From Planctomycetota bacterium (GTDB taxonomy: Bacteria > Planctomycetota > UBA8108 > SXIK01), in assembly GCA_965223265.1 (NCBI GenBank), contig OZ244999.1:7936001-8000000 (forward strand): a DNA stretch of 64,000 nucleotides, read 5' to 3'. The position numbers and the translations under genes are program-made. The notes below the pieces were generated by a model. That model was given only the letters and a program-made list of their open reading frames with translations. It searched no databases and was not told the DNA's origin. This document shows positions 46,656-59,119 of this stretch, piece by piece. Each line of letters starts with the position of its first letter. Position 1 is the stretch's first letter.

Positions 46656-49600
46656 TTAGGGCGCGCGGAGATCGTGCTGCAGCATGAGCTCCGCAACGTG
46701 CTCCGGTTCAACGAAAAAGAGCGTTTCGTTGTCGACGCTGTCGAGCAGTTGTGGATCCCACACCCCGCTGCGCTCCGACACGGCGACTCTCAGGCTGTCC
46801 CAGCGGCCATCTACGGCTTGCAGCGCGCGCAGTCGGTCACTGAGCTGGCTCTGCGTCGCAAGCTCGAGGTGGAGGAGGACGATCTTGCCGCCGCTCCGCT
46901 CCTGGACGGCAGGAAGGATCACGATCGGTCGAGAGTCGGTCGCGCCGTAGCCGAGGAACAGTTTTCGGCTTTGGACGCTGCCCCATTTCGTGCCGCTGAG
47001 AGGTTGCGGTTCCTCACAGCGTGAGAGGATTTTCGCCGCGCAACCTTTCTTCTCGAGCACCCGCACCGTCGAGTCGGGCGTCGGACGACCGAGCGGGTCG
47101 AGTCCCTCGACGCTATAGAGTGTCGCGCCGGCAACGCGGTGCACCACCGGTGCGAAGGCGCTGAGAAAGTGGCGGTGCGAGACGGCGATTTCCGCCGCGT
47201 CGAGACCGAGCTCGTGGTAGGCGTCCCAGAGGACACCACCGATCTGTTCTTCGCCGCGAGAGATGCCCACGGTGACGGTCTTTGCTTGATGCTTGATGGC
47301 GTCGATCGGTCGAGCCAACTCTGCGATCGCTTCGGTGAGGTGCGCGATGACCGTTGCGGGTGCGCTTTCCTCCGTCAGCGGGAACGCGTTCAGTGGCATT
47401 CGTCCCAGGAGAAACGAAATCGCTTCTACGAGGCGCGCTGCGACACCGACGTTGAGCCCGCTGTCGATCTCCCCGGCGCGGAGAGCGCGGTCGAACTCGA
47501 GCAGCTCCTGCGTCGTGTGCGGCGGCAGGGCTCGCACCAGCTGCGACGGCGACTCTTGGCCCGGGTCGCGCTCGACCGCGCTGTCGACAAGCGCAGCGCG
47601 CACGCGCTTGAGAACGTCCGCGAAAGCGTCTAAAGCCCGCGCGGCGTGGAAGCCGAACAGATGGCCCACCATTGTCGCCAGCAGGTAGCTCAGCTCGCCG
47701 CGTTCCGCGGGCACCTTGATGCAGCCCGCGGCGTAGGGGTCGTATCGCGTCTCGCCCTCATCCGTGATCACGATCGGAATCGAACAATGTGCCTTGAAGA
47801 TCGCGACCTCTTTGACAACGTCGGAAATTGTCGCCTCGGGGATGCCGCTAGCGCAGACGAGCACCAGGGGTTCGGCGGAGAGATCGATGTGCTTTTTATC
47901 TTCAAGAAAATCGGACGCTATCGACTTGTAGCAGAGCTCGCTCAGCTTGATGCGGATCTCGTCCGCAGCGATCTTCGTGGCGCCGCTACCAACCACCGCC
48001 CAGTACCGTCGTGTGACGGCGAACTCGCGTGCTAAACGTTCGATTTGGCTGCTGAGCCCCAGCGTTCGCTGCATCGCTTCGGGCAGGTTCTGGAGGCTGC
48101 GAATCTCATCGGCGATGTCGCTGGCCGGCAGCGCGCCGAGGCGATCCGCGAGAGCCAGGGCGAGCACTTGGCCGGCGACGTTTTGGGCGTAGAACGCTTT
48201 GGTCGACGCCACCGACATTTCGATGTCGCGGCCGTCCGACGTGTAGAGGACGCCGTGGGACTTGTAGACCAGGTCGGAGTTGCGGCGATTGACGATCGCG
48301 ATCACCCAGCCGCCGCGCTCGCGCACCATATCCACCGTGCGGTTCGTATCCGTCGTCGTCCCTGACTGCGAAATGGCGACGATCAGCGAGTCGGAGAGGT
48401 CGTCGTTCATGTGATGACCGGAAAGCTCCGTGGCTTTCATCGCGCAGATTTCGAAACCTGGCTCGCTGGAGCGGAGTGCCCGGCGCAGCAGATGCGCGAC
48501 CCCTTGGCCGGCGACCGCGGCCGTGCCCTGGCCGATGACCACCACCCGGCGCACGCGGCCAGTGCGCATCGCTTCGAGTAGCTCGGCAGGCACAACGTCG
48601 TCACCCACCAGGCAGCGGGCCGTGCCTCCCTGAACTTCGAACTTGCCGCGGAGAGTTTTTCGCACCGTGTCGACGGACTCGGAAATCTCTTTGCTCAGAA
48701 AGTGCGTAAACTCGCCGCGGTTGATATCGCGTGTCGTGATTTCGGCGCGCCGAAATCGATTCTCCTCGAGCGGCGCGAACCCGGCGGAGGTTGACAGCGC
48801 CAGCGTTTCTCGTGCATTCGCCTCGGCGTGGACTTTGAAGATCTCGCCTCGTGGGGAGACCTCACCTTCCGCTTTGACGTAGTCTTGAGCCATCTCGACG
48901 ACGCCGTACATTTCCGAGGCGACGACGATGGCTGAGTCCCCGACGCCGAAGAAGAGTCCTTGACCACTGCCCTTCTGTGCGAAGAAGAACTCCCCTGGCC
49001 GATCCGCCGCCATGACTCCGATGGCCATGGAGCCTTCGAACTCGTCGAACGCGCGTTCGACGGCGACGGCGAGATCGCGGCACTCATCGTAGTGATGCTT
49101 GACGACAACGGGGATGATCTTGGCGTCTGTCGTGATGTGTTCGTCGAGTCGGGTGCCATGCTTCGAGCTGTAGGCGCGCAGGAGTTCCTGATAGTTGTCG
49201 ATGTCGCCGTTGAGCACAGCGACGATTTCGCCATCGCCGCGGACCTGTCCGTTCTCGGCGAGGGTGGCGCTGTCGACCGGATGGCAGTTTGGCTCAGAGA
49301 TCACTCCGTTCGATGCCCACCTGGTGTGAGCGAGACTTTGGATATCGACGTCAGGCTGGGCGAGGGCATGCTGAAACAGCGCATCCGTCTCGATCGCTTG
49401 TCGCAGGAAGGCGACGTTGTCTCCCATGCGGCCGATTTCGCGTGCCACCTTGAATGCAAAAAGCAGTGTGCGGTCGCTTGAGTCAGGCTGGACGACCGCC
49501 CCGTGGGTGAAGCGCGTCTGCTGCGTTCGAGCCTCGAGCATGTGGCGCCATGTGTCATCGTGAGCGGGGATGTCGCAGCGGCTGTCGAGGAAACGGCCTA

Positions 49601-50183
49601 AGGCTTCCGCCGTCGGAAAATGCACGTAGATGGAAATGCCCGCGGAGTCTCTGCCGCGCACCTCGAGTCGGTCGAGCCCGGAGAGGATCAGCTGGATTTG
49701 CCAGGCGTGGCGGAGAAGGCGCTCCTGCGTGGCGGCCGGGCCTGAGCTCACGAGACGTCGGACCTCATCAAAGTGGCCGAGGCAGTCCGACAGAATCTGC
49801 CACTCGATATCGCGACAGCCGATGACGACGCGGTTGACCAATTCCCAGTCGAGCCCGGCGGGCAGATTTCCGCCGCCTGCGAGCGACTCGAAGTCGTTCG
49901 CGGCGCGGCCGAAGCGCTCTGCGCAGTCCCTCAGTTGGTCTTGCAGTGACGGACTCTGCAAAGCCGCCAGAAACCCGTCACGCTGCACCCAGCGATAGGA
50001 GGCCACGCGCGTCGCCTCCAGCTTGGCATCGAGATCCGCGCCGTTGGTGCCAGTGGGAAGGTTCTCTTTCTCGGTCGCACGCGCAGCGCTATTCAAGAAC
50101 GTATCCGCAGCGGAGAAGAATTCCTCGTTCGCGGCGTGCTGCTCGTCGCTCTTCGACGAGACGAAACCGAAGATTCCACACAT
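46656..50183 (-). CDS. Extended GlmS-like glutamine amidotransferase/SIS-domain protein (1175 aa)
   Basis: N-terminal MCGIFG, RGRDSAG, HTRWAS, NGDIDN, SQSGTT, VASTK and AKTVTVG. Confidence 0.88.
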   Translation of the reverse strand: MCGIFGFVSSKSDEQHAANEEFFSAADTFLNSAARATEKENLPTGTNGADLDAKLEATRVASYRWVQRDGFLAALQSPSLQDQLRDCAERFGRAANDFESLAGGGNLPAGLDWELVNRVVIGCRDIEWQILSDCLGHFDEVRRLVSSGPAATQERLLRHAWQIQLILSGLDRLEVRGRDSAGISIYVHFPTAEALGRFLDSRCDIPAHDDTWRHMLEARTQQTRFTHGAVVQPDSSDRTLLFAFKVAREIGRMGDNVAFLRQAIETDALFQHALAQPDVDIQSLAHTRWASNGVISEPNCHPVDSATLAENGQVRGDGEIVAVLNGDIDNYQELLRAYSSKHGTRLDEHITTDAKIIPVVVKHHYDECRDLAVAVERAFDEFEGSMAIGVMAADRPGEFFFAQKGSGQGLFFGVGDSAIVVASEMYGVVEMAQDYVKAEGEVSPRGEIFKVHAEANARETLALSTSAGFAPLEENRFRRAEITTRDINRGEFTHFLSKEISESVDTVRKTLRGKFEVQGGTARCLVGDDVVPAELLEAMRTGRVRRVVVIGQGTAAVAGQGVAHLLRRALRSSEPGFEICAMKATELSGHHMNDDLSDSLIVAISQSGTTTDTNRTVDMVRERGGWVIAIVNRRNSDLVYKSHGVLYTSDGRDIEMSVASTKAFYAQNVAGQVLALALADRLGALPASDIADEIRSLQNLPEAMQRTLGLSSQIERLAREFAVTRRYWAVVGSGATKIAADEIRIKLSELCYKSIASDFLEDKKHIDLSAEPLVLVCASGIPEATISDVVKEVAIFKAHCSIPIVITDEGETRYDPYAAGCIKVPAERGELSYLLATMVGHLFGFHAARALDAFADVLKRVRAALVDSAVERDPGQESPSQLVRALPPHTTQELLEFDRALRAGEIDSGLNVGVAARLVEAISFLLGRMPLNAFPLTEESAPATVIAHLTEAIAELARPIDAIKHQAKTVTVGISRGEEQIGGVLWDAYHELGLDAAEIAVSHRHFLSAFAPVVHRVAGATLYSVEGLDPLGRPTPDSTVRVLEKKGCAAKILSRCEEPQPLSGTKWGSVQSRKLFLGYGATDSRPIVILPAVQERSGGKIVLLHLELATQSQLSDRLRALQAVDGRWDSLRVAVSERSGVWDPQLLDSVDNETLFFVEPEHVAELMLQHDLRAP

Positions 50184-50434
50184 GTGTTGCTAGACTCCCG
50201 GAGCAGACTTTATCCTCGCCTCTCTCGTCGCGGGTGGCTCAGACGCTAGGAGGCAGTTGGTTCGAAACGCGAGTTTCCGCCGATTTGGGGACGACCTGTT
50301 GGTACGTGCCGCATCCGCGTGGTACCTCAGGCCCTCTACTGGTCAATCGGCGTTCCGTCTCGTGGATATGTGGAGATCTTTTTCTCGAAAGGGTGACTCA
50401 CCGCCGGTGCACCGCTGAGGACCTTGCGTTTCCT

Positions 50435-51670
50435 TCATTTGGCGCTGGCGTCCGGACTGGCGGTGGCGTCTACGCCGCCGCGAAAGTCGATCAGTTCCGG
50501 AAAAGCGTTCGAGTCGAGGAGGGCGGTCGAATCTTTGGCACCTTTGAGAAAACGATCAAAAAACGCAATGCTGTAAGCGTTGATAACATCTTTAGCGTTC
50601 TTCGGCTTGGTGAAGTGCACTTCTCCTTTGTCGCTTTTCTCAACGCCGATCCCGTCTCCGAAGTTCGGGTTGATGGCTGCCATCTCGGTGAAGGAATAGT
50701 GTCCGCCTTCCCGCAGCGAGAGGAAGAAGCGCGGACCTGTCGCGGTGTTGTAGTACTGAGTCGACGCAGCGTTGCCGAACGGGCCGACCGTTCGATCGAG
50801 CCCGCCAACCATGACGAACACTGGAATCGTTGGCGGCGGGCCGACGGCCAGTGTCATCGCCAGGGACGCCTTCACGCGTGCGTCGTTCGGTAGCAGCTCA
50901 CAAACGGTCATGCCACCGAACGAGTGTCCGAGAACGCCGATGGCCTCGACGTCTACGGAATCATGCAGCCACTCTGCGCGCTCACGAGACCGCCGCAGGA
51001 GTTGATCGACCACAAACTTCACGTCCTGCGGTCGATCCAATCTCGAGCGCTGTCGGCCTTCCCCGTTGTACGGAAGATAGCGATCCTGAAGCACGGTTAC
51101 GCCGCAGTTGCCTGAATGATCGGGAGCCGCGACGATGTAGCCGTGGCTGGCGAGATGTTCGACTTGGAAGGTGTTCTGGTGGCGAAAACCACCGTTTCCG
51201 TGCGAGAAAACAAGAAGTGGATAACGCCCGGCTCGTCGGCGCGCGTCGCGGACCGCCGTGCAGACGAAACGTTTGTTCACTTCTTCGAGCTCGCCCTGGA
51301 ACCGCTTGACGATCTCGCGCGCTGCCTGCTCGTGACCGCGGAAGTAGTCCGTGAACTTGTTTGTCTCCGCGCCGTCGGCAACGATGGCGGGGTACCAGAT
51401 TTCTGTGACCAGCGTGCGGTGTCCACCTGTGTACGGGTCTTGGCGTCGAGTGTCGACCAGCTCGATCGTGCGCACGCCGACCGCGTAGGGTCCGGGCTTC
51501 GCCGCCTCGCCCAGCACACTGGCTGCCACAGGTGACGCAGCCGGGGGCGATTCGGCTTTCGGTTTATCCGGTGCCGCCTCCAAAACCGAGCAGACTGAGT
51601 TGGCTAGTACGAAAAGCAGTAACATCGAGGCGATCAATAGCGCCGGTGGTTGCGAGTCGTGAGGGCTCAT
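50435..51670 (-). CDS. Secreted alpha/beta hydrolase (PAF-acetylhydrolase-like)
   Basis: Signal-like N-terminus, FSHGNGG, LASHGY and the nucleophile elbow GHSFG. Confidence 0.88.
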   Translation of the reverse strand: MSPHDSQPPALLIASMLLLFVLANSVCSVLEAAPDKPKAESPPAASPVAASVLGEAAKPGPYAVGVRTIELVDTRRQDPYTGGHRTLVTEIWYPAIVADGAETNKFTDYFRGHEQAAREIVKRFQGELEEVNKRFVCTAVRDARRRAGRYPLLVFSHGNGGFRHQNTFQVEHLASHGYIVAAPDHSGNCGVTVLQDRYLPYNGEGRQRSRLDRPQDVKFVVDQLLRRSRERAEWLHDSVDVEAIGVLGHSFGGMTVCELLPNDARVKASLAMTLAVGPPPTIPVFVMVGGLDRTVGPFGNAASTQYYNTATGPRFFLSLREGGHYSFTEMAAINPNFGDGIGVEKSDKGEVHFTKPKNAKDVINAYSIAFFDRFLKGAKDSTALLDSNAFPELIDFRGGVDATASPDASAK

Positions 51671-52725
51671 GTCGCTTCTTCCTTTTGCTGGCCGTCTCGT
51701 GAGACGCGAAGCACGAGGCGCCCGAGGACGCCTCCGCCGCGTAGTCGTTCGTGCGCGGTGTTGACTTCTTCGAGCGGCAGGACATCGGTGACGACCGACC
51801 GGATCTTGCCGGCGGCGGCGAGGTCAACGGCACGCTTGAGATCGCGCTTCGGCCCGCACCGCGAGCCGATGAGTTCGAGCTCGTTTTGGGCCAGCCGTTT
51901 GCCACTCAAGGAGTATTCGTCGGACGTGTAGCCGACCACTACCAGGCGGCCTCCGACCTGGAGCGAATCCACCGCGGCGCTGAGCGTGTCGCTCGTGCCG
52001 ACGATATCCAGCACGCACCTTGCGCCGGCGTCGCTTGTCAGGCGGCGGACCGCGGCCGCGACGTCTTCGGCGCCGGCGTCGATCGCTTCGTCGGCGCCAA
52101 GGGCGAGCGCGTGCGCCGATTTGGCGATGCCCTTTTCCACCGCGATAACGCGGGCGCCGGCTAGCTTAGCGAACTGCACCGCGAAGGAGCCGACGCCTCC
52201 AACGCCGATGACGACGACCGTTTCACCGAGTTTGATCCGCGCGCGGTCCACAGCGTGGAACGCTGTGATCCCGGCATCGCAAAGAACGGCCGCGTCTTCC
52301 CACGAGATGGTGTCAGGAAGGCGTACCAGCTGGCGCGCCGGAACGCACAAATACTCGGCATAGGCTCCTTGCCATCCCTTAACACCGACAACACCGTCCA
52401 GCTCGGGGCACAGTTGCTCGCGCTCGCTGCGGTAGTACGGGCTCTCAGGCGGCACCAAGAAGATGTACGGAATGACTCGATCACCCTCCGTGAACTCGAG
52501 CACATGATCGCCGACGGCCGCGACCACACCCGCAGGCTCGTGCCCCATGATGAATGGCAATCGCGGCGTGTATCCGAAGCCTTTGAGGAGTTTTAAGTCG
52601 GTTCCGTCGACACCGCACGCCATCACGCGCACGAGCACCTCATCCGCGCCAGGCGTTGGTGTCGGCACCTCCTCGATCGAGAGAGGTTGATCGAACTTGC
52701 GAAGAATTGCAGCTTTCAAGGTCAC
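51667..52725 (-). CDS. Zinc-binding (MDR) alcohol dehydrogenase
   Basis: GHE motif and the Rossmann motif GVGGVG. Confidence 0.9.
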   Translation of the reverse strand: MTLKAAILRKFDQPLSIEEVPTPTPGADEVLVRVMACGVDGTDLKLLKGFGYTPRLPFIMGHEPAGVVAAVGDHVLEFTEGDRVIPYIFLVPPESPYYRSEREQLCPELDGVVGVKGWQGAYAEYLCVPARQLVRLPDTISWEDAAVLCDAGITAFHAVDRARIKLGETVVVIGVGGVGSFAVQFAKLAGARVIAVEKGIAKSAHALALGADEAIDAGAEDVAAAVRRLTSDAGARCVLDIVGTSDTLSAAVDSLQVGGRLVVVGYTSDEYSLSGKRLAQNELELIGSRCGPKRDLKRAVDLAAAGKIRSVVTDVLPLEEVNTAHERLRGGGVLGRLVLRVSRDGQQKEEAT

Positions 52726-52856
52726 GTTCCCGTACGGCGACCGGAGGGTTCGAATACTACGGTCGTCATCCTACCCGCCCACCCCGGGTCGATTCGATCA
52801 AGTTCACCCGCTTCGAGCTGCGCACCTGTCGCATAACGCCGAGCGCCGGCGCGAGA

Positions 52857-54224
52857 TCAATCCGATTCTCGATCCTGCGGCACGCCGCCGAGCTGCACCT
52901 TGATCTTTAGCGACTCATCGCCGCGTTTGACGTCGAGAATCACCTCGGTCCCGGGATACAGCGGCCCGAAGTAAGCCTGCAGCTCGCCGAACGACCGGAC
53001 GTGCATGCCGGAGAGACCGTGGATGACATCGTTCGGCTGGATTCCCGAGAGTGAAGCTGGTCCGCCCGGCTCGACGTTCGAGATGCGAACACCCGCCTCC
53101 GGTTGATCGTCCGAGTCGACGACGACTCCCAGCCACGGGTGATCGCTTTCAAAAAGCGCCGCGATGATTTCGATGCTGCGATCGCCGCGCTCGATTCGCA
53201 CCGGGATTTTTGTGCCGGCCGGATAGGTCCCCAGGACTCCGAGGTAACGATTGCGCGTGGTCACCTTCTCGCCTGCGATCCGGATGATGCGATCGCCGGC
53301 GACGAACCCGAAGCGCTCCGCGGCCGACCCGGCGGTGACCTTGACGATCGGCAGACCGTGGCGCTGGTTCGTTCGACGCATACCCACGCGCAGTCCATTG
53401 ATCTTACCGTGACGTACGAGACCACCTCCCGCACGTTTCAGAGGTTCTAAGAAGCGCTGCACTTGGTTGCTGGGGATGGCGTAACCGATTCCTGAATTGA
53501 TCCCGACGCCGTACGGGTTCTCGATTTTGCCGTTGATGCCGACGACCTTGCCGTCGAGGGTCAACAGGGGCCCGCCAGAGTTTCCAGGATTGACAGCAGC
53601 GTCGACCTGGATCGCGTCGGTGTACGCTTCGGAGTAGCGATGCAGCGCGCTGACGATTCCCGTCGAAGCTGCCGGTTCGTAGTCGGGCGGCGACTCCGGC
53701 AGAAAGAGTTCGCGTGAGCCGACAAGAAACGGATCGCCAAGCGCGATGACGCGATCGCCAACCTCGAGGGCGTCGGAGTCGCCGAACTCAAGTGCTGGGA
53801 CTCCGGGTTCACCGTCCAGTTTGAGCAGCGCGAGGTCGCCGCCGGGGAAGTGTCCGACGACGGTCGCCTGCATCTCACGACCACCTCGCAGTTGAACTTC
53901 GACCCGACCCACGAGGACGTTCGGATCTCCTTGCGAGACGACGTGCTCGTTCGTGAGAACGTAGCCCTCTTCCGAGATCACAAAACCGGAACCGCCCTGA
54001 ATGAAGACGAAGCTCTTCGCGGCGCGCTCGATCGTGGCGCGCATCTCCTCTTCTAGGCGACGCAGATCGCCCAGGTCGCCGATTTTCTGATCGCGCTCGA
54101 CCTCCACCGCTTGCAAGCATACGGTTGGTGGCGCGAGACAAGCCGGCGCCAGCAGCGCGGCGGCGTGCAACACCGCTACCCAGTAGCTCGCGGCGCGGCT
54201 TCGGATCGTGGTCGGCGGCGTCAC
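52857..54224 (-). CDS. HtrA/S1C serine protease with two PDZ domains (intact triad)
   Basis: TNEHVV, DLALLK and GNSGGP. Confidence 0.9.
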   Translation of the reverse strand: MTPPTTIRSRAASYWVAVLHAAALLAPACLAPPTVCLQAVEVERDQKIGDLGDLRRLEEEMRATIERAAKSFVFIQGGSGFVISEEGYVLTNEHVVSQGDPNVLVGRVEVQLRGGREMQATVVGHFPGGDLALLKLDGEPGVPALEFGDSDALEVGDRVIALGDPFLVGSRELFLPESPPDYEPAASTGIVSALHRYSEAYTDAIQVDAAVNPGNSGGPLLTLDGKVVGINGKIENPYGVGINSGIGYAIPSNQVQRFLEPLKRAGGGLVRHGKINGLRVGMRRTNQRHGLPIVKVTAGSAAERFGFVAGDRIIRIAGEKVTTRNRYLGVLGTYPAGTKIPVRIERGDRSIEIIAALFESDHPWLGVVVDSDDQPEAGVRISNVEPGGPASLSGIQPNDVIHGLSGMHVRSFGELQAYFGPLYPGTEVILDVKRGDESLKIKVQLGGVPQDRESD

Positions 54225-55249
54225 GGTTTCTCTCCTAAGGCGATTTCCAGCTCGAGGATTTTTTCCTGTCGCTTCACCTTGACCTGCACGACGTCGCCCA
54301 CTTCGTGGGCTAGGACCAGTGCTTTCAGATGGTAGAAGTCCCTCACCGCCTCGCCGTTGATTTCGAGAAGGATGTCATCGGCGATGACGCCAGCCTTTGC
54401 CGCCGCACCGCCTTCGACGACCCGCCCGACGTGCGAGCCCTCCGGGACCTCCTTGCCGATCGAGATGACGCCGAGCATAGGGGGTTTGATGTTCTTTCCT
54501 TCGCGCAAGCGCGGCAGAATCCGCCGCAAAGTCTTCACGGTCGTACCGAATCCGACGCCGGAGTTGATGCCCCATTGGGGTTGGTGATGACCGACAAAGC
54601 AAGCGATGCCGACGAGCCGCCCCTCCAGGTCGATCAACGGTCCGCCGACGTTTCCGTAGTTGAGCTTGGCGTCGGTCTGGAACGCTCGGCCAGCGTTGCG
54701 CCCGAGCGCGCTCACGATGCCTCGCGTCACGGTGGTGCTGCGGGGATCCGGCGAGCGGCCGACCGCGAACACGATTTGTCCGGCCCCGAGACCCTTGGAG
54801 TCGCGCCATGGTTCGAACGACGTGGGCTCTTGCGCGTCGCCCGGCAGCTGTTTCGCTCGCAACAGCGCGACATCGTCCTGTGCACTCACGGCCAGCACCT
54901 CGGCGCTCGAGGTTTCGCCGCTTGCGAACGTCACACTGAGAGACTCGAGCTCTCCGACGACGTTGTAGAAACTCGTCAGGATGTGCCCGCCACCATCGAT
55001 GATGAAGCCGGTGACCGGGCCGTCGGGTCGGCGAAAGTAAGACCGTGCCTCGCCGCCGCCGAGAACCTCGCCGATGCGCGCGGCGGGCAGATCGGTGCCC
55101 TCCCTTCGCTCGATCTGAATCGAAACGACCCGCTGCTCGACGCCGGCCAGAAGCTCAGCGACGCTGGTCGGGGCATCAATGGGAGTACCGAAAGTCGGGT
55201 GCAGTGGGAGTAGAACCCCGACTAGGGTGAGCGTCAGTATCTTCCCCAA
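54221..55249 (-). CDS. HtrA-like pseudoprotease with one PDZ domain
   Basis: LTSFYNV lacks the catalytic His and GNVGGP lacks the catalytic Ser. Confidence 0.85.
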   Translation of the reverse strand: MGKILTLTLVGVLLPLHPTFGTPIDAPTSVAELLAGVEQRVVSIQIERREGTDLPAARIGEVLGGGEARSYFRRPDGPVTGFIIDGGGHILTSFYNVVGELESLSVTFASGETSSAEVLAVSAQDDVALLRAKQLPGDAQEPTSFEPWRDSKGLGAGQIVFAVGRSPDPRSTTVTRGIVSALGRNAGRAFQTDAKLNYGNVGGPLIDLEGRLVGIACFVGHHQPQWGINSGVGFGTTVKTLRRILPRLREGKNIKPPMLGVISIGKEVPEGSHVGRVVEGGAAAKAGVIADDILLEINGEAVRDFYHLKALVLAHEVGDVVQVKVKRQEKILELEIALGEKP

Positions 55250-56331
55250 AGTTGAATCTCCATGCTGCGCTCTTCTTCGTTCCGTTTCAGCTTGAGCGTC
55301 AGTTTGTCTCCAGGTTTCTTGCCGCCGAAGATTGTGCGGAACTCCTGCGTCGACGTGACTCTTCGATCGTCCGCCTGCTGGATCACGTCGCCTGGCTCAA
55401 GCCCGGCGCGCGATGCAGGACTGTCCGGAACAATCCTAGTGACTCTGACGCCGAGTTTTTCCTCGGCCGCCAGCTCGACCCCTAGATAGCTCAGTGAGTC
55501 GTTTTTGCTCTCCTGATCAAACCTCTTGTCGCCGCTGGCAGCCAGTAGGCTTGGCTTGAGGATGTCGACCGGCACCGCAGCTGCCAGCCAACGGTTCGGT
55601 GAGTAGTTGAGAGTGATCACGCCGAGCAGCTCGCCGCGTGCGCTCACCAAGGGTCCACCGTCCATGCCGTTGTTGACTGGAGCGCTCGTTTCGATGACAC
55701 GGCCGATGTACGTCGACTCTCCTTGCGTCTCGCGAAGGGAGAAGAGACCGCTGATGACTCCCGCCGACATGGCAGCCTGGTCGTCCTTTTGAATGCACTC
55801 GAACGCGTTGCCGAGGGTGTAGACCGGCGCGCCGAGAGCGATGGCGGTGGAATTCCCCAAGCTGAGGTAAGGCAGGTCGCCGCCGCCTTCTCCGGAGCGC
55901 TCGACTCGCAGCAAGGAGAACTCAGTTGCCGATTTGGTTTCGATCAGTTTGGCGCTGACGACTTGTCCACCTTGTAGATAGACGCGAATGCGGCGCGCCT
56001 TTCCGGGGACCACGGTTGTCGAGGTGAGGACCAGGCCCTCTGGTGACACAACCGTTCCAGTGCCGAAGAAAGAGAACTCAGAGCCGCCTGTCCCCGGGGC
56101 GCGGCAGGTGACACCGACGACTGCTGGCGACACATAGGCGTAAACTCGCACGGCCGGCGAACGCTCCGCGGCCGGGAGAGCGTCACGAGCATGGACTATG
56201 ACGGCGAGAACGAGCGCGGCGAGCACGTGGAGCCGCCGGCGCCGGCGAGAGATCAGCGTTTGGCGAGCGATCTTGATGGCGCACTGTCCTTTCTTGCGTC
56301 GCGACTGCCGCAGCGCGAGGTGCGCATTCAT
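55234..56331 (-). CDS. HtrA-like pseudoprotease with one PDZ domain
   Basis: LTSTTVV lacks His, EFSLLR replaces the Asp, and GMDGGP lacks Ser. The start is uncertain. Confidence 0.85.
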   Translation of the reverse strand: MNAHLALRQSRRKKGQCAIKIARQTLISRRRRRLHVLAALVLAVIVHARDALPAAERSPAVRVYAYVSPAVVGVTCRAPGTGGSEFSFFGTGTVVSPEGLVLTSTTVVPGKARRIRVYLQGGQVVSAKLIETKSATEFSLLRVERSGEGGGDLPYLSLGNSTAIALGAPVYTLGNAFECIQKDDQAAMSAGVISGLFSLRETQGESTYIGRVIETSAPVNNGMDGGPLVSARGELLGVITLNYSPNRWLAAAVPVDILKPSLLAASGDKRFDQESKNDSLSYLGVELAAEEKLGVRVTRIVPDSPASRAGLEPGDVIQQADDRRVTSTQEFRTIFGGKKPGDKLTLKLKRNEEERSMEIQLWGRY

Positions 56332-56662
56332 CCTGAAGTCTGATGGCTTCGGCGTCAACCAGACAGGGGCCGGCGGCCTCGGCTATCTCGCAGCTCGATG
56401 GGGGTCCACATGCACGGTGAGCGGCGACAGTGCGCTGTGTTGGGGGCGATCATCGGTCGGATGATTTCGATCCGAACCGACGCCGCGAGGGGGTTTGGAC
56501 CCCTGTCGAAGCTGGTAGGCTGGAAGGTCGTCGCGAAGACGCGCGCCGTCACGACATCGGCGACGCACAGGCGACGACATTAACCGGATGTGGGACGGCC
56601 GATTTTTCCGTGTGATCGGGCGTCCTTCGCCCCACTTGGTGCAGCGGTGTGCGATCGCGAGG

Positions 56663-56678
56663 TGGCACGGCGATTGCA
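56663..56678 (+). promoter_or_regulatory. Consensus sigma54 promoter
   Basis: TGGCACG-GCGA-TTGCA is an exact -24/-12 consensus match in an intergenic region. Confidence 0.75.
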
Positions 56679-57448
56679 GACTCAACGGCAGCGTTAGCTT
56701 TCGACCGACATTCTGATCCGCTGAGCCACTGGGGCCTGGCGGAACGGCCCAAGCCGCGGGCGGGAATCGGGCCACTTGTTCTCGTCCGTGGCGTCTACCG
56801 ATTCGTGATACCCAGACCATGCGTGAAACCGCGAAACGCGCCGGCGACCTGAAACCCGCCGATCCGTCGCCCGTCCGCGAGGCCGATGGTAAGGACGCTG
56901 TGCAGCCGGATCTCGAGCCGCAGGAGCCTGAGGCCCCGAGTCTCAAACCGCAAGACCTCGAGCCTGAAAACGAGAGAGAATCGGCGTTGCCGACGACGCG
57001 GCGAGCGCGTTCATCCGGTCAACCTCGGCGACCCGCAGGATGATCTTCTCGCCACGAACCTTCGGCTTCGGGCTGTCTGCGTGCCTGCGGAGCATTTGCG
57101 AGCGCACTCGCCGGAACTCGTTCGATCGGTTCGACGTAACCGACAACGGACCCGAGTCGGCCCTCGGCAATTTGTCCCTCGAGGCCGTACGTTCGCGCAA
57201 GGGATCCGAAGCAGCCACCCTTTTAGGATGTTATTCATCCGAAAATATCTGCCACTAAGATGCAGAATATCCGAACCGGCGCGTCTCGCACTCGGAAACG
57301 GTCCGCTGAGCGTATGGCCCCGAAGTTGCATATTTCGCGACGCTTCGGGCGAGACCCAGCGGTCGCGCAGGGACGGCGATAACGGAGTCGACGGCGGTGG
57401 CGACGCAGCGCGAGGCTCTTCCGGAGTTCGTCGTAGGAGGACGAAGAT

Positions 57449-58219
57449 ATGCGGCGCCTTGTATCAATTACGCACTTCCCGTGTCTCGTCATGCTTCTTT
57501 GGGTCGTCGGCGTCACGCCGACGTCGAGCGCCGAGGACGCGCCGGCGACCGCGACGATAAAGAACGATCCTTACTGCGTGGTCCAGATCGGCAGCGACGC
57601 AGTCGAGATCGTCCGCAAGTCGGAGCTTCCCGCGCTCAAGAAGAAGGTGGCGGAGGCGAACAAGCAGGCGCTGAAAGCCTACTCGGAAGCCCGGAAAGCA
57701 GCGAAACGAGCGAAAGAGAAATTCTCCGCGGCGAGGCCTCGAGCGAAGAAGGTGAAGGTACTCTCGGCGTCACTTAAGACCGAGTCGGAGGCGAAAAAGC
57801 TCCGCGATGCGACCCTCGCGAAGGTCAATGGATACGTGGTCGTTCTGGCTGGTCTCGAGCTCCACGTCCTGCGAAAGTCAGAGGTCTTCGATCTCAAGAA
57901 GGACCTCAAGCAGCGAGACGACGACGCGGTCGCGTCGTACAAATCCGCGCAGGCCGCCGCGAAGCAGAGTGGTGAGAAGTTCAAGCGGAAGAAGCCGACC
58001 CAAACGAGGGTGAAAGTCCTGGCTTCGGGTTTCCGGACAGAAACCGACGCGGCGCGTAAGGCCGAGGCGCTGCTCGAGAAGAACAGGAAGCTCAAACCCT
58101 CCGAGGGCCTCGAGCGCGTTCTCGAGTCCGACGGCGACCGTGCGGACAGTCGCGAAGAGGGCGAGGAGGATCAAGACGAAGAGGATGAAGAAACCTCGCC
58201 TGGAGAGAACGGTGAGTAG
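57449..58219 (+). CDS. Lys/Ala-rich hypothetical exported protein with a duplicated domain and an acidic tail
   Basis: GGAGG RBS, signal-like N-terminus, two internal repeats of about 80 aa and an E/D-rich C-terminus. Confidence 0.8.
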   Translation: MRRLVSITHFPCLVMLLWVVGVTPTSSAEDAPATATIKNDPYCVVQIGSDAVEIVRKSELPALKKKVAEANKQALKAYSEARKAAKRAKEKFSAARPRAKKVKVLSASLKTESEAKKLRDATLAKVNGYVVVLAGLELHVLRKSEVFDLKKDLKQRDDDAVASYKSAQAAAKQSGEKFKRKKPTQTRVKVLASGFRTETDAARKAEALLEKNRKLKPSEGLERVLESDGDRADSREEGEEDQDEEDEETSPGENGE

Positions 58220-58282
58220 CCTCGAGCGACGAGGCGTCGGCCGTCGAATTCTCCGGCTCTCCAGTGAGTTCATAGTGGCTCG

Positions 58283-59119
58283 ATGAGCACCACTTCTTCA
58301 CCAGCTCCAGCGATGTTCACTGACGCAGGTGCTGAACCCCTCGTCGCGGTGGCGCTCCACGACGGTCATCAAGTGCGCGACGCGCTCGTCGAGCACCTCG
58401 CGGTCCACGCTGCGGCGCGCTTTCGGGAGGAGGATCCGTTCACGCGGGAATGGACGACCGTTGCCTCTACGCGCATCGTGGGTCTTCGATCCCGTTTCGA
58501 AGTGGACCTCAACCGTCCGCGAGACAAGGCCGTGTACCTGACGCCCGAAGCGTCGTGGGGGCTTCGGGTGTGGAGCAGGGAGTGCCCGTCGGACGAGGTG
58601 GAACAGTCGCTCGCCCAGTATGACGAGTTCTACAGGAGAGCTGGCGAGCTCTTTACCGCGATGGCGTCGATTCACGACCGTTTCGTCGTCTTCGACCTCC
58701 ACTCCTACAATCACCGTCGGAACGGCTTCGACGCGCTTCCCGCGCCAGCGAACGAGCACCCCGAAGTCAATCTCGGCACGGCGACGATGGACCGCGAGTT
58801 ATGGGCTCCTGTGGTCGATCGCTTCGTCGCGGAGCTGCGCTCCCGGCCGTTCATGGGCAGGCGAATCGATGTTCGCGAGAACGTCAAGTTTTTCGGTGGA
58901 CACTTCGCCCGATGGGCGCACGAGAATTTCGCCGAAAGCGCATGCGTCCTCTCTATTGAATTCAAAAAGATGTTCATGGACGAGTGGACCGGTGAACCCT
59001 ATCCTGACCACATTGAAGCGGCACGCGACGCGCTCGCCCGCGCCATCCCCGGAGTACTCCAGGAACTCGACCGAATTGACGCATCGCGAGCGCCAGGGAC
59101 TTCCCACTACAACGGTTGA
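58283..59119 (+). CDS. N-formylglutamate amidohydrolase family protein
   Basis: ALHDGH, EEDPFT, SRFEVDLNR and DLHSY. Confidence 0.9.
   Translation: MSTTSSPAPAMFTDAGAEPLVAVALHDGHQVRDALVEHLAVHAAARFREEDPFTREWTTVASTRIVGLRSRFEVDLNRPRDKAVYLTPEASWGLRVWSRECPSDEVEQSLAQYDEFYRRAGELFTAMASIHDRFVVFDLHSYNHRRNGFDALPAPANEHPEVNLGTATMDRELWAPVVDRFVAELRSRPFMGRRIDVRENVKFFGGHFARWAHENFAESACVLSIEFKKMFMDEWTGEPYPDHIEAARDALARAIPGVLQELDRIDASRAPGTSHYNG

Follow-up and report, generated by a model that had tools for sequence, protein, structure and literature searches.

HtrA-type serine proteases are central to protein quality control in the bacterial envelope and in organelles, where their regulation proceeds via communication between identical subunits. 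Members of the family (HtrA, DegP, DegQ, DegS; MEROPS S1C) form homotrimers of chains with an export signal and a trypsin-like domain followed by one or more PDZ domains, and inter-subunit activation is well established for these trimers. This communication is hard to dissect, since each mutation is present three times in the trimer. Mixed protease rings such as ClpP/ClpR contain inactive paralogues as obligate structural subunits, an analogy that extends to the shared principle only, as fold, symmetry and energy dependence are unrelated. The locus described here lies in a stretch of 64,000 nucleotides from a Planctomycetota bacterium (assembly GCA_965223265.1, contig OZ244999.1, positions 7,936,001 to 8,000,000 of the forward strand), which is the window referred to throughout, and comprises three tandem HtrA-like genes, A, B and C. 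Whereas the known members of the family are homo-oligomers of identical active subunits, the catalytic triad is present here in one of three co-inherited subunits, and the three genes probably encode a periplasmic heterotrimer of the HtrA type, obligate and asymmetric, which has a single active site.

Pseudoprotease HtrAs (MamO and the second domain of DEG7) and HtrA hetero-oligomers (Deg5/Deg8) are already known. MamO is described as a degenerate HtrA-like protein beside the active MamE that is required for proteolysis by MamE, and pseudoprotease copies in magnetotactic bacteria as having arisen repeatedly and been retained by selection (PMC4794232). The trio resembles this pair in that a degenerate HtrA-like protein adjoins an active one. 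It differs in having two different dead subunits that lack extra domains and occur naturally fused to the active partner, whereas MamO is described with a TauE transporter domain, a di-histidine metal site and a magnetosome-island context. The NCBIfam MamO model, whose cut-off is 800 bits, gives A 36 bits and B 24, and the neighbours of the trio in the window (a hydrolase, a dehydrogenase and an amidotransferase) do not form a magnetosome-island context.

The plant DEG7 and fungal Nma111-type proteins also carry several HtrA protease domains per chain, including a degenerate one that is dedicated to assembly (PMC3194040). DEG7 is, however, eukaryotic and has two protease domains, the active one followed by the degenerate one, and four PDZ domains, whereas the window has three separate genes, and in their fused relatives two dead domains precede the active one and the number of PDZ domains ranges from zero to three. 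Arabidopsis Deg5/Deg8 is a natural HtrA hetero-oligomer with 1:1 stoichiometry (PMC4877387), but both of its subunits have catalytic triads (PMC3640471) and neither is dead, unlike the present trio in which two of three lack the triad. Engineered HtrA2 heterotrimers with inactive protomers showed crosstalk between subunits (bioRxiv 10.1101/2021.10.04.462974); these were artificial and made from one gene, whereas the asymmetry here is encoded in the genome. Neither a trimer of two different dead HtrAs and one active HtrA, nor this Planctomycetota gene set, nor its fusion series was found described in the full-text literature, which leaves most subscription journals outside.

Three HtrA-like genes and their catalytic positions

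The three genes are read from the reverse strand in the order A, B, C, with the following features.

55234..56331, reverse strand: gene A, putatively exported HtrA-like pseudoprotease with one PDZ domain, 365 residues from the ATG at 56331 (open reading frame (ORF) and Pfam)
54221..55249, reverse strand: gene B, putatively exported HtrA-like pseudoprotease with one PDZ domain, 342 residues, TTG start (ORF and Pfam)
52857..54224, reverse strand: gene C, putatively exported HtrA protease with intact triad and two PDZ domains, 455 residues, GTG start (ORF and Pfam)
55234..55249, reverse strand: A/B junction, a 16-nucleotide overlap with GGAG about 8 nucleotides ahead of the TTG of B (sequence reading)
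54221..54224, reverse strand: B/C junction, a GTGA start/stop overlap with the GTG of C over the TGA of B and AGGAGA upstream (sequence reading)

The start of gene A is ambiguous between the ATG at 56331 and a TTG at 56358, which would give 374 residues (ORF 55234..56358). All three products match Pfam Trypsin_2 above its cut-off of 27.6 bits (A, 77 bits, E 2.4e-21; B, 84 bits, E 3.1e-23; C, 111 bits, E 1.1e-31) and the PDZ models PDZ_2, PDZ_6 and PDZ, with two PDZ stretches in C and a PDZ_2 match at E 1.5e-17 in A. A search of Pfam found no domain in A or B beyond the trypsin-like and PDZ domains, such as a transporter domain. Each translation, inspected by eye, begins with a basic and then a hydrophobic stretch. 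The ORFs, junction sequences and Pfam matches together with these translations bear out the preliminary description of three co-directional, overlapping trypsin-PDZ genes with export-like N-termini. Against the named HtrA equivalogs of NCBIfam (DegP, DegQ, DegS, HhoA/HhoB/HtrA and MucD-like), A, B and C all fall far below the curated cut-offs; the best model for each is TIGR02037, at 131, 159 and 251 bits respectively against a cut-off of 416.

Alignment to DegP structures, which match C residue by residue over residues 74-444 (E 8e-42), places the catalytic triad of C at His94, Asp130 and Ser216 (motifs TNEH, GGDLA and GNSGG). When aligned to C, the triad columns hold Thr106, Glu137 and Asp224 in A, numbered on the 365-residue product (LTSTT, TEFSL, GMDGG), and Tyr95, Asp126 and Val201 in B (TSFYN, DDVAL, GNVGG). 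The alignments to C and to the DegP structures uphold the earlier claim that the first and second genes have lost the catalytic His and Ser, and alignment and Pfam agree with its account of the third gene as carrying TNEH, Asp, GNSGG and two PDZ domains. The account of the dead copies needs one correction, in that A has also lost the Asp, with Glu in its place, and B retains it. Judged by their sequences, A and B are homologues of the HtrA (S1C) family and not enzymes of that family.

The replacements are characteristic of each family. A homologue search with A returned only six close relatives (34-49% identity), all six with Thr, Ser or Ala, then Glu, then Asp or Glu at the triad positions, and Asp at the Ser position is retained in nearly all A-family members examined. 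B has about 80 clusters of homologues, and all the named ones are from Planctomycetota. Among 84 B-family members, none has His in the His column, where 61 carry Tyr, 21 Phe and 2 Trp; 82 retain the Asp, but only 7 the Ser. All three triad residues are invariant in 25 orthologues of C. The A and B families each have invariant residues of their own, including in A the Glu of an ETxA motif that replaces the QTDA of ordinary HtrAs. In a FastTree phylogeny (LG+gamma) of 160 protease domains, including 16 generic HtrAs, A, B and C are each monophyletic against the generic proteins (support 1.0, 0.99 and 0.96). Ratios of nonsynonymous to synonymous substitution rates (dN/dS) are 0.10-0.28 for A, 0.15-0.22 for B and 0.14-0.21 for C, calculated by the Nei-Gojobori method for 10 close pairs with dS of 0.11-0.31; distant pairs were saturated and left out.

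These data bear on the simplest account of two dead copies beside a live one, namely that A and B are recent inactive paralogues heading for loss, for which the missing catalytic residues are the sole point in favour. Such an origin is contradicted by the dN/dS values, which equal those of C, by the family-specific invariant residues, by the monophyly of A and B across many Planctomycetota lineages and by reading frames that are intact in all loci examined, and it can be considered very nearly excluded. The dead copies are conserved families with fixed replacement patterns and are under purifying selection like that on C. The decay or lack of conservation that the preliminary description had named as one outcome that would refute its proposal is not borne out.

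Co-inheritance and natural fusions of the three domain types

Prokaryote genomes, one per species, were scanned for a B-family motif; of the 100 confirmed stretches obtained, the best 80 (L001-L080) were compared as loci, with ORFs called by a first-start rule and triad columns read with a family hidden Markov model. By their titles nearly all are from Planctomycetota; three are labelled 'bacterium' or 'uncultured bacterium' and one Chitinophagaceae. The loci fall into two arrangements: 27 have separate A, B and C genes (L001-L027) and 53 have A and B fused in one gene followed by C (L028-L080). In the separate-gene loci the order is an A-like gene, a B-like gene and a gene with His, Asp and Ser, all on one strand. 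A is found upstream in 24 of the 27 and C downstream in 26, and the three misses for A and the one for C lie at contig ends. The genes are closely packed, with an A-to-B distance of -16 to +25 nucleotides in 20 of 24 loci and a B-to-C distance of -38 to +19 nucleotides in 22 of 26. The genome of the window has nine Trypsin_2 ORFs, including at least three others with His and Ser; only one is an A and only one a B, and the C model gives 558 bits for C against 156 and 98 for paralogues.

In the fused-type loci the B domain sits in a protein of about 670-790 residues. All six A-B fusions tested against Pfam have two Trypsin_2 stretches and a single PDZ domain. In all 45 complete fusions the A model fits the first domain best, with a median of 174 bits compared with 46 from the B model and 53 from the C model, and the B model fits the rest of the protein best (224 bits against 90 and 95). 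The Asp at the former Ser position of the first domain is invariant, within a G-S-D-G-G-P motif. An active gene with His, Asp and Ser follows the fusion gene in at least 50 of the 53 loci, and in 30 of 50 the two genes overlap by exactly 4 nucleotides under the first-start rule. Members of the fused type form one subclade within each of A, B and C (support 1.0), as expected under co-inheritance.

The series extends to single chains. An A-domain profile was run against 1.84 billion representative proteins, and the best 150 matches, all of at least 272 bits, have one protease domain in 75 cases, two in 64, three in nine and none in two. Pfam confirms three Trypsin_2 stretches in all nine of the triple-domain proteins. 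Seven of these are collinear homologues with 27-45% identity over 600-800 residues, and in all seven the domains are, by best score, A, then B, then C, with His, Asp and Ser kept in the third. A reading of 'YDS' at the third domain of two triple fusions was due to a one-column alignment offset and was discarded; TNYH[VI] is present in both. The eighth triple protein, P0242 (1071 residues), has the permuted order C-A-B and three PDZ stretches, and the domain order of the ninth is ambiguous. Uninterrupted A-B-C ORFs are found in Planctomycetota in 2 of 401 sampled genomes with the A6 profile, one of 655 residues (L084) identical to the protein P0350 and one of 954 residues (L085) identical to P0288. 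The triple fusion P0213 has no match at 1e-70 in the 401 genomes, and metagenome scans with P0213 and P0317 gave no match. Together with the separate genes, the A-B and A-B-C fusions show one set of three domain types distributed over three chains, over two or in a single chain.

At one further locus (L086, G197:C52:33363-36236) the match to the triple-fusion profile is full-length but contains two stop codons, a TAG and a TAA; three abutting genes in one frame are provisionally the likeliest interpretation.

The A profile gives no clean cut-off, and no claim is therefore made for the prevalence of the module. In the census of the phylum 383 of 401 genomes match at E 1e-30, a figure that is unspecific because PDZ columns were part of the A model and E values of 1e-30 to 1e-50 are obtained with generic HtrAs; a library-wide count of 14464 at 1e-30 is unspecific for the same reason. 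A hand count of the census gives about 94 of 401 genomes with a best E of 1e-53 or below. Several Planctomycetota genomes (among those listed, G320, G125, G375, G388, G335 and G245) have two or three strong A-type matches, which indicates that the module can be duplicated.

The arrangement of the genes also bears on whether the dead proteins act independently of a complex with C. A and B could be co-regulated periplasmic binding proteins or chaperones, perhaps binding ligands or metals as MamO does, that serve the pathway of C and form no stable complex with it. MamO offers a precedent, since it is reported to promote MamE-dependent proteolysis with no detected interaction (PMC4794232), and the distinctive conserved acidic site of A and the separation of A-B from C in one genome (L080) fit the same view. 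A-B fusions in at least 45 loci and A-B-C proteins in seven protein clusters are, however, hard to explain if the domains do not associate physically, and no transporter or other additional domain is present in A or B. Independent action of the pseudoenzymes is accordingly regarded as improbable.

Predicted assembly and a proposed mechanism

A complex prediction with the protease domains of A, B and C, in which C was the scored partner, gives an interaction prediction score from aligned errors (ipSAE) of 0.88 (0.86, 0.88 and 0.90 in individual runs), and the best of three controls reaches 0.20. The prediction passes a mark that 116 of 157 solved complexes attain, as do 2 of 215 mismatched pairs. 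Contacts common to the runs make up at least 73%, and the predicted local distance difference test (pLDDT) value of the partner is at least 82. C is predicted to contact both A and B, partly via N-terminal segments, and this modelled use of N-terminal segments resembles the trimer core of HtrA homotrimers.

Monomer models of the natural fusions point in a similar direction. AlphaFold2 gives an A-B fusion a mean pLDDT of 87.8 and a predicted template modelling score (pTM) of 0.79 with a structured helical connector, and the natural A-B-C chain P0317 a mean pLDDT of 74.4 and a pTM of 0.77 from only seven alignment rows. In A-B-C chains of 625-655 residues the low-confidence linkers are shorter than 20 residues. 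The models suggest defined packing between the domains of both the A-B and the A-B-C proteins. In Foldseek the A-B fusion model matches single-chain HtrAs only, the best being Deg1, DegS, DegQ, DegP and MucD.

A different architecture would draw on the same genes. A, B and C could each form homotrimers, held together by contacts between like protease domains, that stack or otherwise associate; a fully active C3 would then have the dead rings as its scaffold or as a chaperone chamber. The layered assembly is also in keeping with the order of the genes, their co-inheritance and the fusions, since fusion needs only presence in the same complex. It has precedents in DEG7, which trimerises via its degenerate protease domain (PMC3194040), and in Deg5/Deg8, described as hetero-oligomers built out of homotrimers at 1:1 (PMC4877387), and by these precedents the fusions are compatible with stacked homotrimeric rings too. 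The complex prediction instead sets C against A and B via the canonical interface, at 0.88 against 0.20, with a bias towards known trimers. The pTM values of 0.79 and 0.77 suggest intramolecular packing of unlike domains, and linkers of fewer than 20 residues in the A-B-C chains of 625-655 residues would be tight for three separate rings. Stacked homotrimers are on balance unlikely, though less so than independent action of the dead proteins.

Apart from the DEG7 and Deg5/Deg8 precedents, several further points weigh against a heterotrimer. The ipSAE pass may reflect likeness rather than specific binding because HtrA homotrimers have already been solved, and the score covers the heterotrimer alone. 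A trimer-like geometry of the fused proteins would be read from pTM alone. The 10 pairs behind the dN/dS values stem from only 5 related loci. In L080 the gene after A-B encodes a phosphomannose isomerase, and a C-family gene (405 bits) is found at another site of that genome. The distribution is patchy: the A profile matches at 1e-89 or below in nine of nine sampled genomes of the order of the window, but none of 14 other genomes of the same class reaches 1e-42. The tree does not settle the order of fusion and fission (support 0.36-0.91). The support for a heterotrimer is comparative and predictive in kind.

The 1:1:1 hetero-oligomer proposed in the preliminary description is therefore supported in part. 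The conserved gene order, the A-B and A-B-C fusions, equal purifying selection and the complex prediction speak for it as a probable assembly, with one based on homotrimers as the less likely alternative. The roles of substrate receptor, regulator or chaperone that the same description gave to the dead subunits are candidate functions. In the heterotrimer favoured here, one protease domain each of A, B and C would pack into the canonical HtrA trimer core. The sole catalytic site would be that of C, and the domains of A and B would be permanently inactive and different from each other. By analogy with known trimers, the dead subunits may contribute trans-acting loops and PDZ or other peptide-binding surfaces that capture substrates or signals. 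They may also gate the one active site of C, a role suggested by analogy with inter-subunit activation in HtrA trimers. The acidic pair in the former active site of A, consisting of the Glu of ETxA and the Asp in place of Ser, could form a ligand-binding pocket.

The C-terminus of A may be a further element of such control. Separately encoded A proteins end in WGRF, WGRY, WGRL, WGKF or RGRF in 15 of 25 cases and in [KR]PVY in 4 of 25 (window 55237..55248; L001-L015, L019-L021 and L027), and these aromatic ends are absent once A is fused to B. The A protein of the window itself ends in WGRY. We take them to resemble PDZ-binding C-termini such as those of DegS activators, which makes them a lead rather than a claim.

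The most complete form of the proposal, to which we give roughly even chances, is that this Planctomycetota HtrA is a genome-encoded, obligately asymmetric trimer of pseudo-threefold symmetry, made as three, two or one chains depending on lineage. Its three domain types, of which one is catalytic and the other two are degenerate in different ways, would have diverged long ago. The dead domains would act as sensors or receptors: the Glu/Asp pocket of A would bind a ligand or a basic residue, its aromatic C-terminus (WGRF, WGRY, PVY) would dock in the PDZ domain of a partner, and together they would gate one active site. If a heterotrimer of this kind exists, it would be the first natural heterotrimeric HtrA, and its three non-equivalent protomers would separate the catalytic from the structural and allosteric functions of the HtrA subunit. 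The single-chain form would then be a ready system for dissecting inter-subunit allostery protomer by protomer. A natural heterotrimer would also be a clear example from bacteria of pseudoenzymes kept as obligate subunits, of which few are known, and would give a role to widespread Planctomycetota genes that are annotated generically as "S1C family serine protease".

Neighbouring genes

The surroundings of the trio in the window contain four further protein-coding features.

51667..52725: Zn-dependent alcohol dehydrogenase, between C and the hydrolase
50435..51670, reverse strand: secreted PAF-acetylhydrolase-like alpha/beta hydrolase, 411 residues, GHSFGG motif (Pfam PAF-AH_p_II, E 1.7e-17)
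46656..50183, reverse strand: protein with glutamine-amidotransferase and SIS domains, 1175 residues, far longer than ordinary GlmS
57449..58219, forward strand: Lys/Glu-rich protein of 256 residues, divergent from A, its N-terminus signal-like and its two halves similar to each other, no Pfam match

A homologue of the hydrolase directly follows C in 13 of the 27 separate-gene loci (L002, L006, L007, L013, L015 and eight more), often with a 4-nucleotide overlap, and the hydrolase may be a fourth member of the operon or a client of the protease. The amidotransferase/SIS protein is conserved downstream of the module in six loci. Between A and the divergent gene (56332..57448, about 1.1 kb), the two ORFs have no Pfam match, no sigma-70-like promoter was seen and no ORF is conserved in related loci. 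Rfam has no family in 50000-58500, the promoter scan gave 0 sites and the terminator scan 6 sites against 6.4 expected. A look-up of sequencing runs returned four DNA entries, all from one study, and no RNA entry.

Some neighbours recur elsewhere. A trypsin-like gene with His, Asp and Ser (TNHHLV, PGSSGG) lies on the same strand about 4 kb downstream of C in L003, L006, L008 and L011 and has no counterpart in the window. The fused-type loci have divergent upstream genes in common, including one for a 421-residue protein with no Pfam match in 34 loci (in L036, 3589..4854, reverse strand). Their upstream neighbours also include a xylose-isomerase-like TIM barrel protein, a GFO/IDH/MocA oxidoreductase and an S26 signal peptidase (14 loci).

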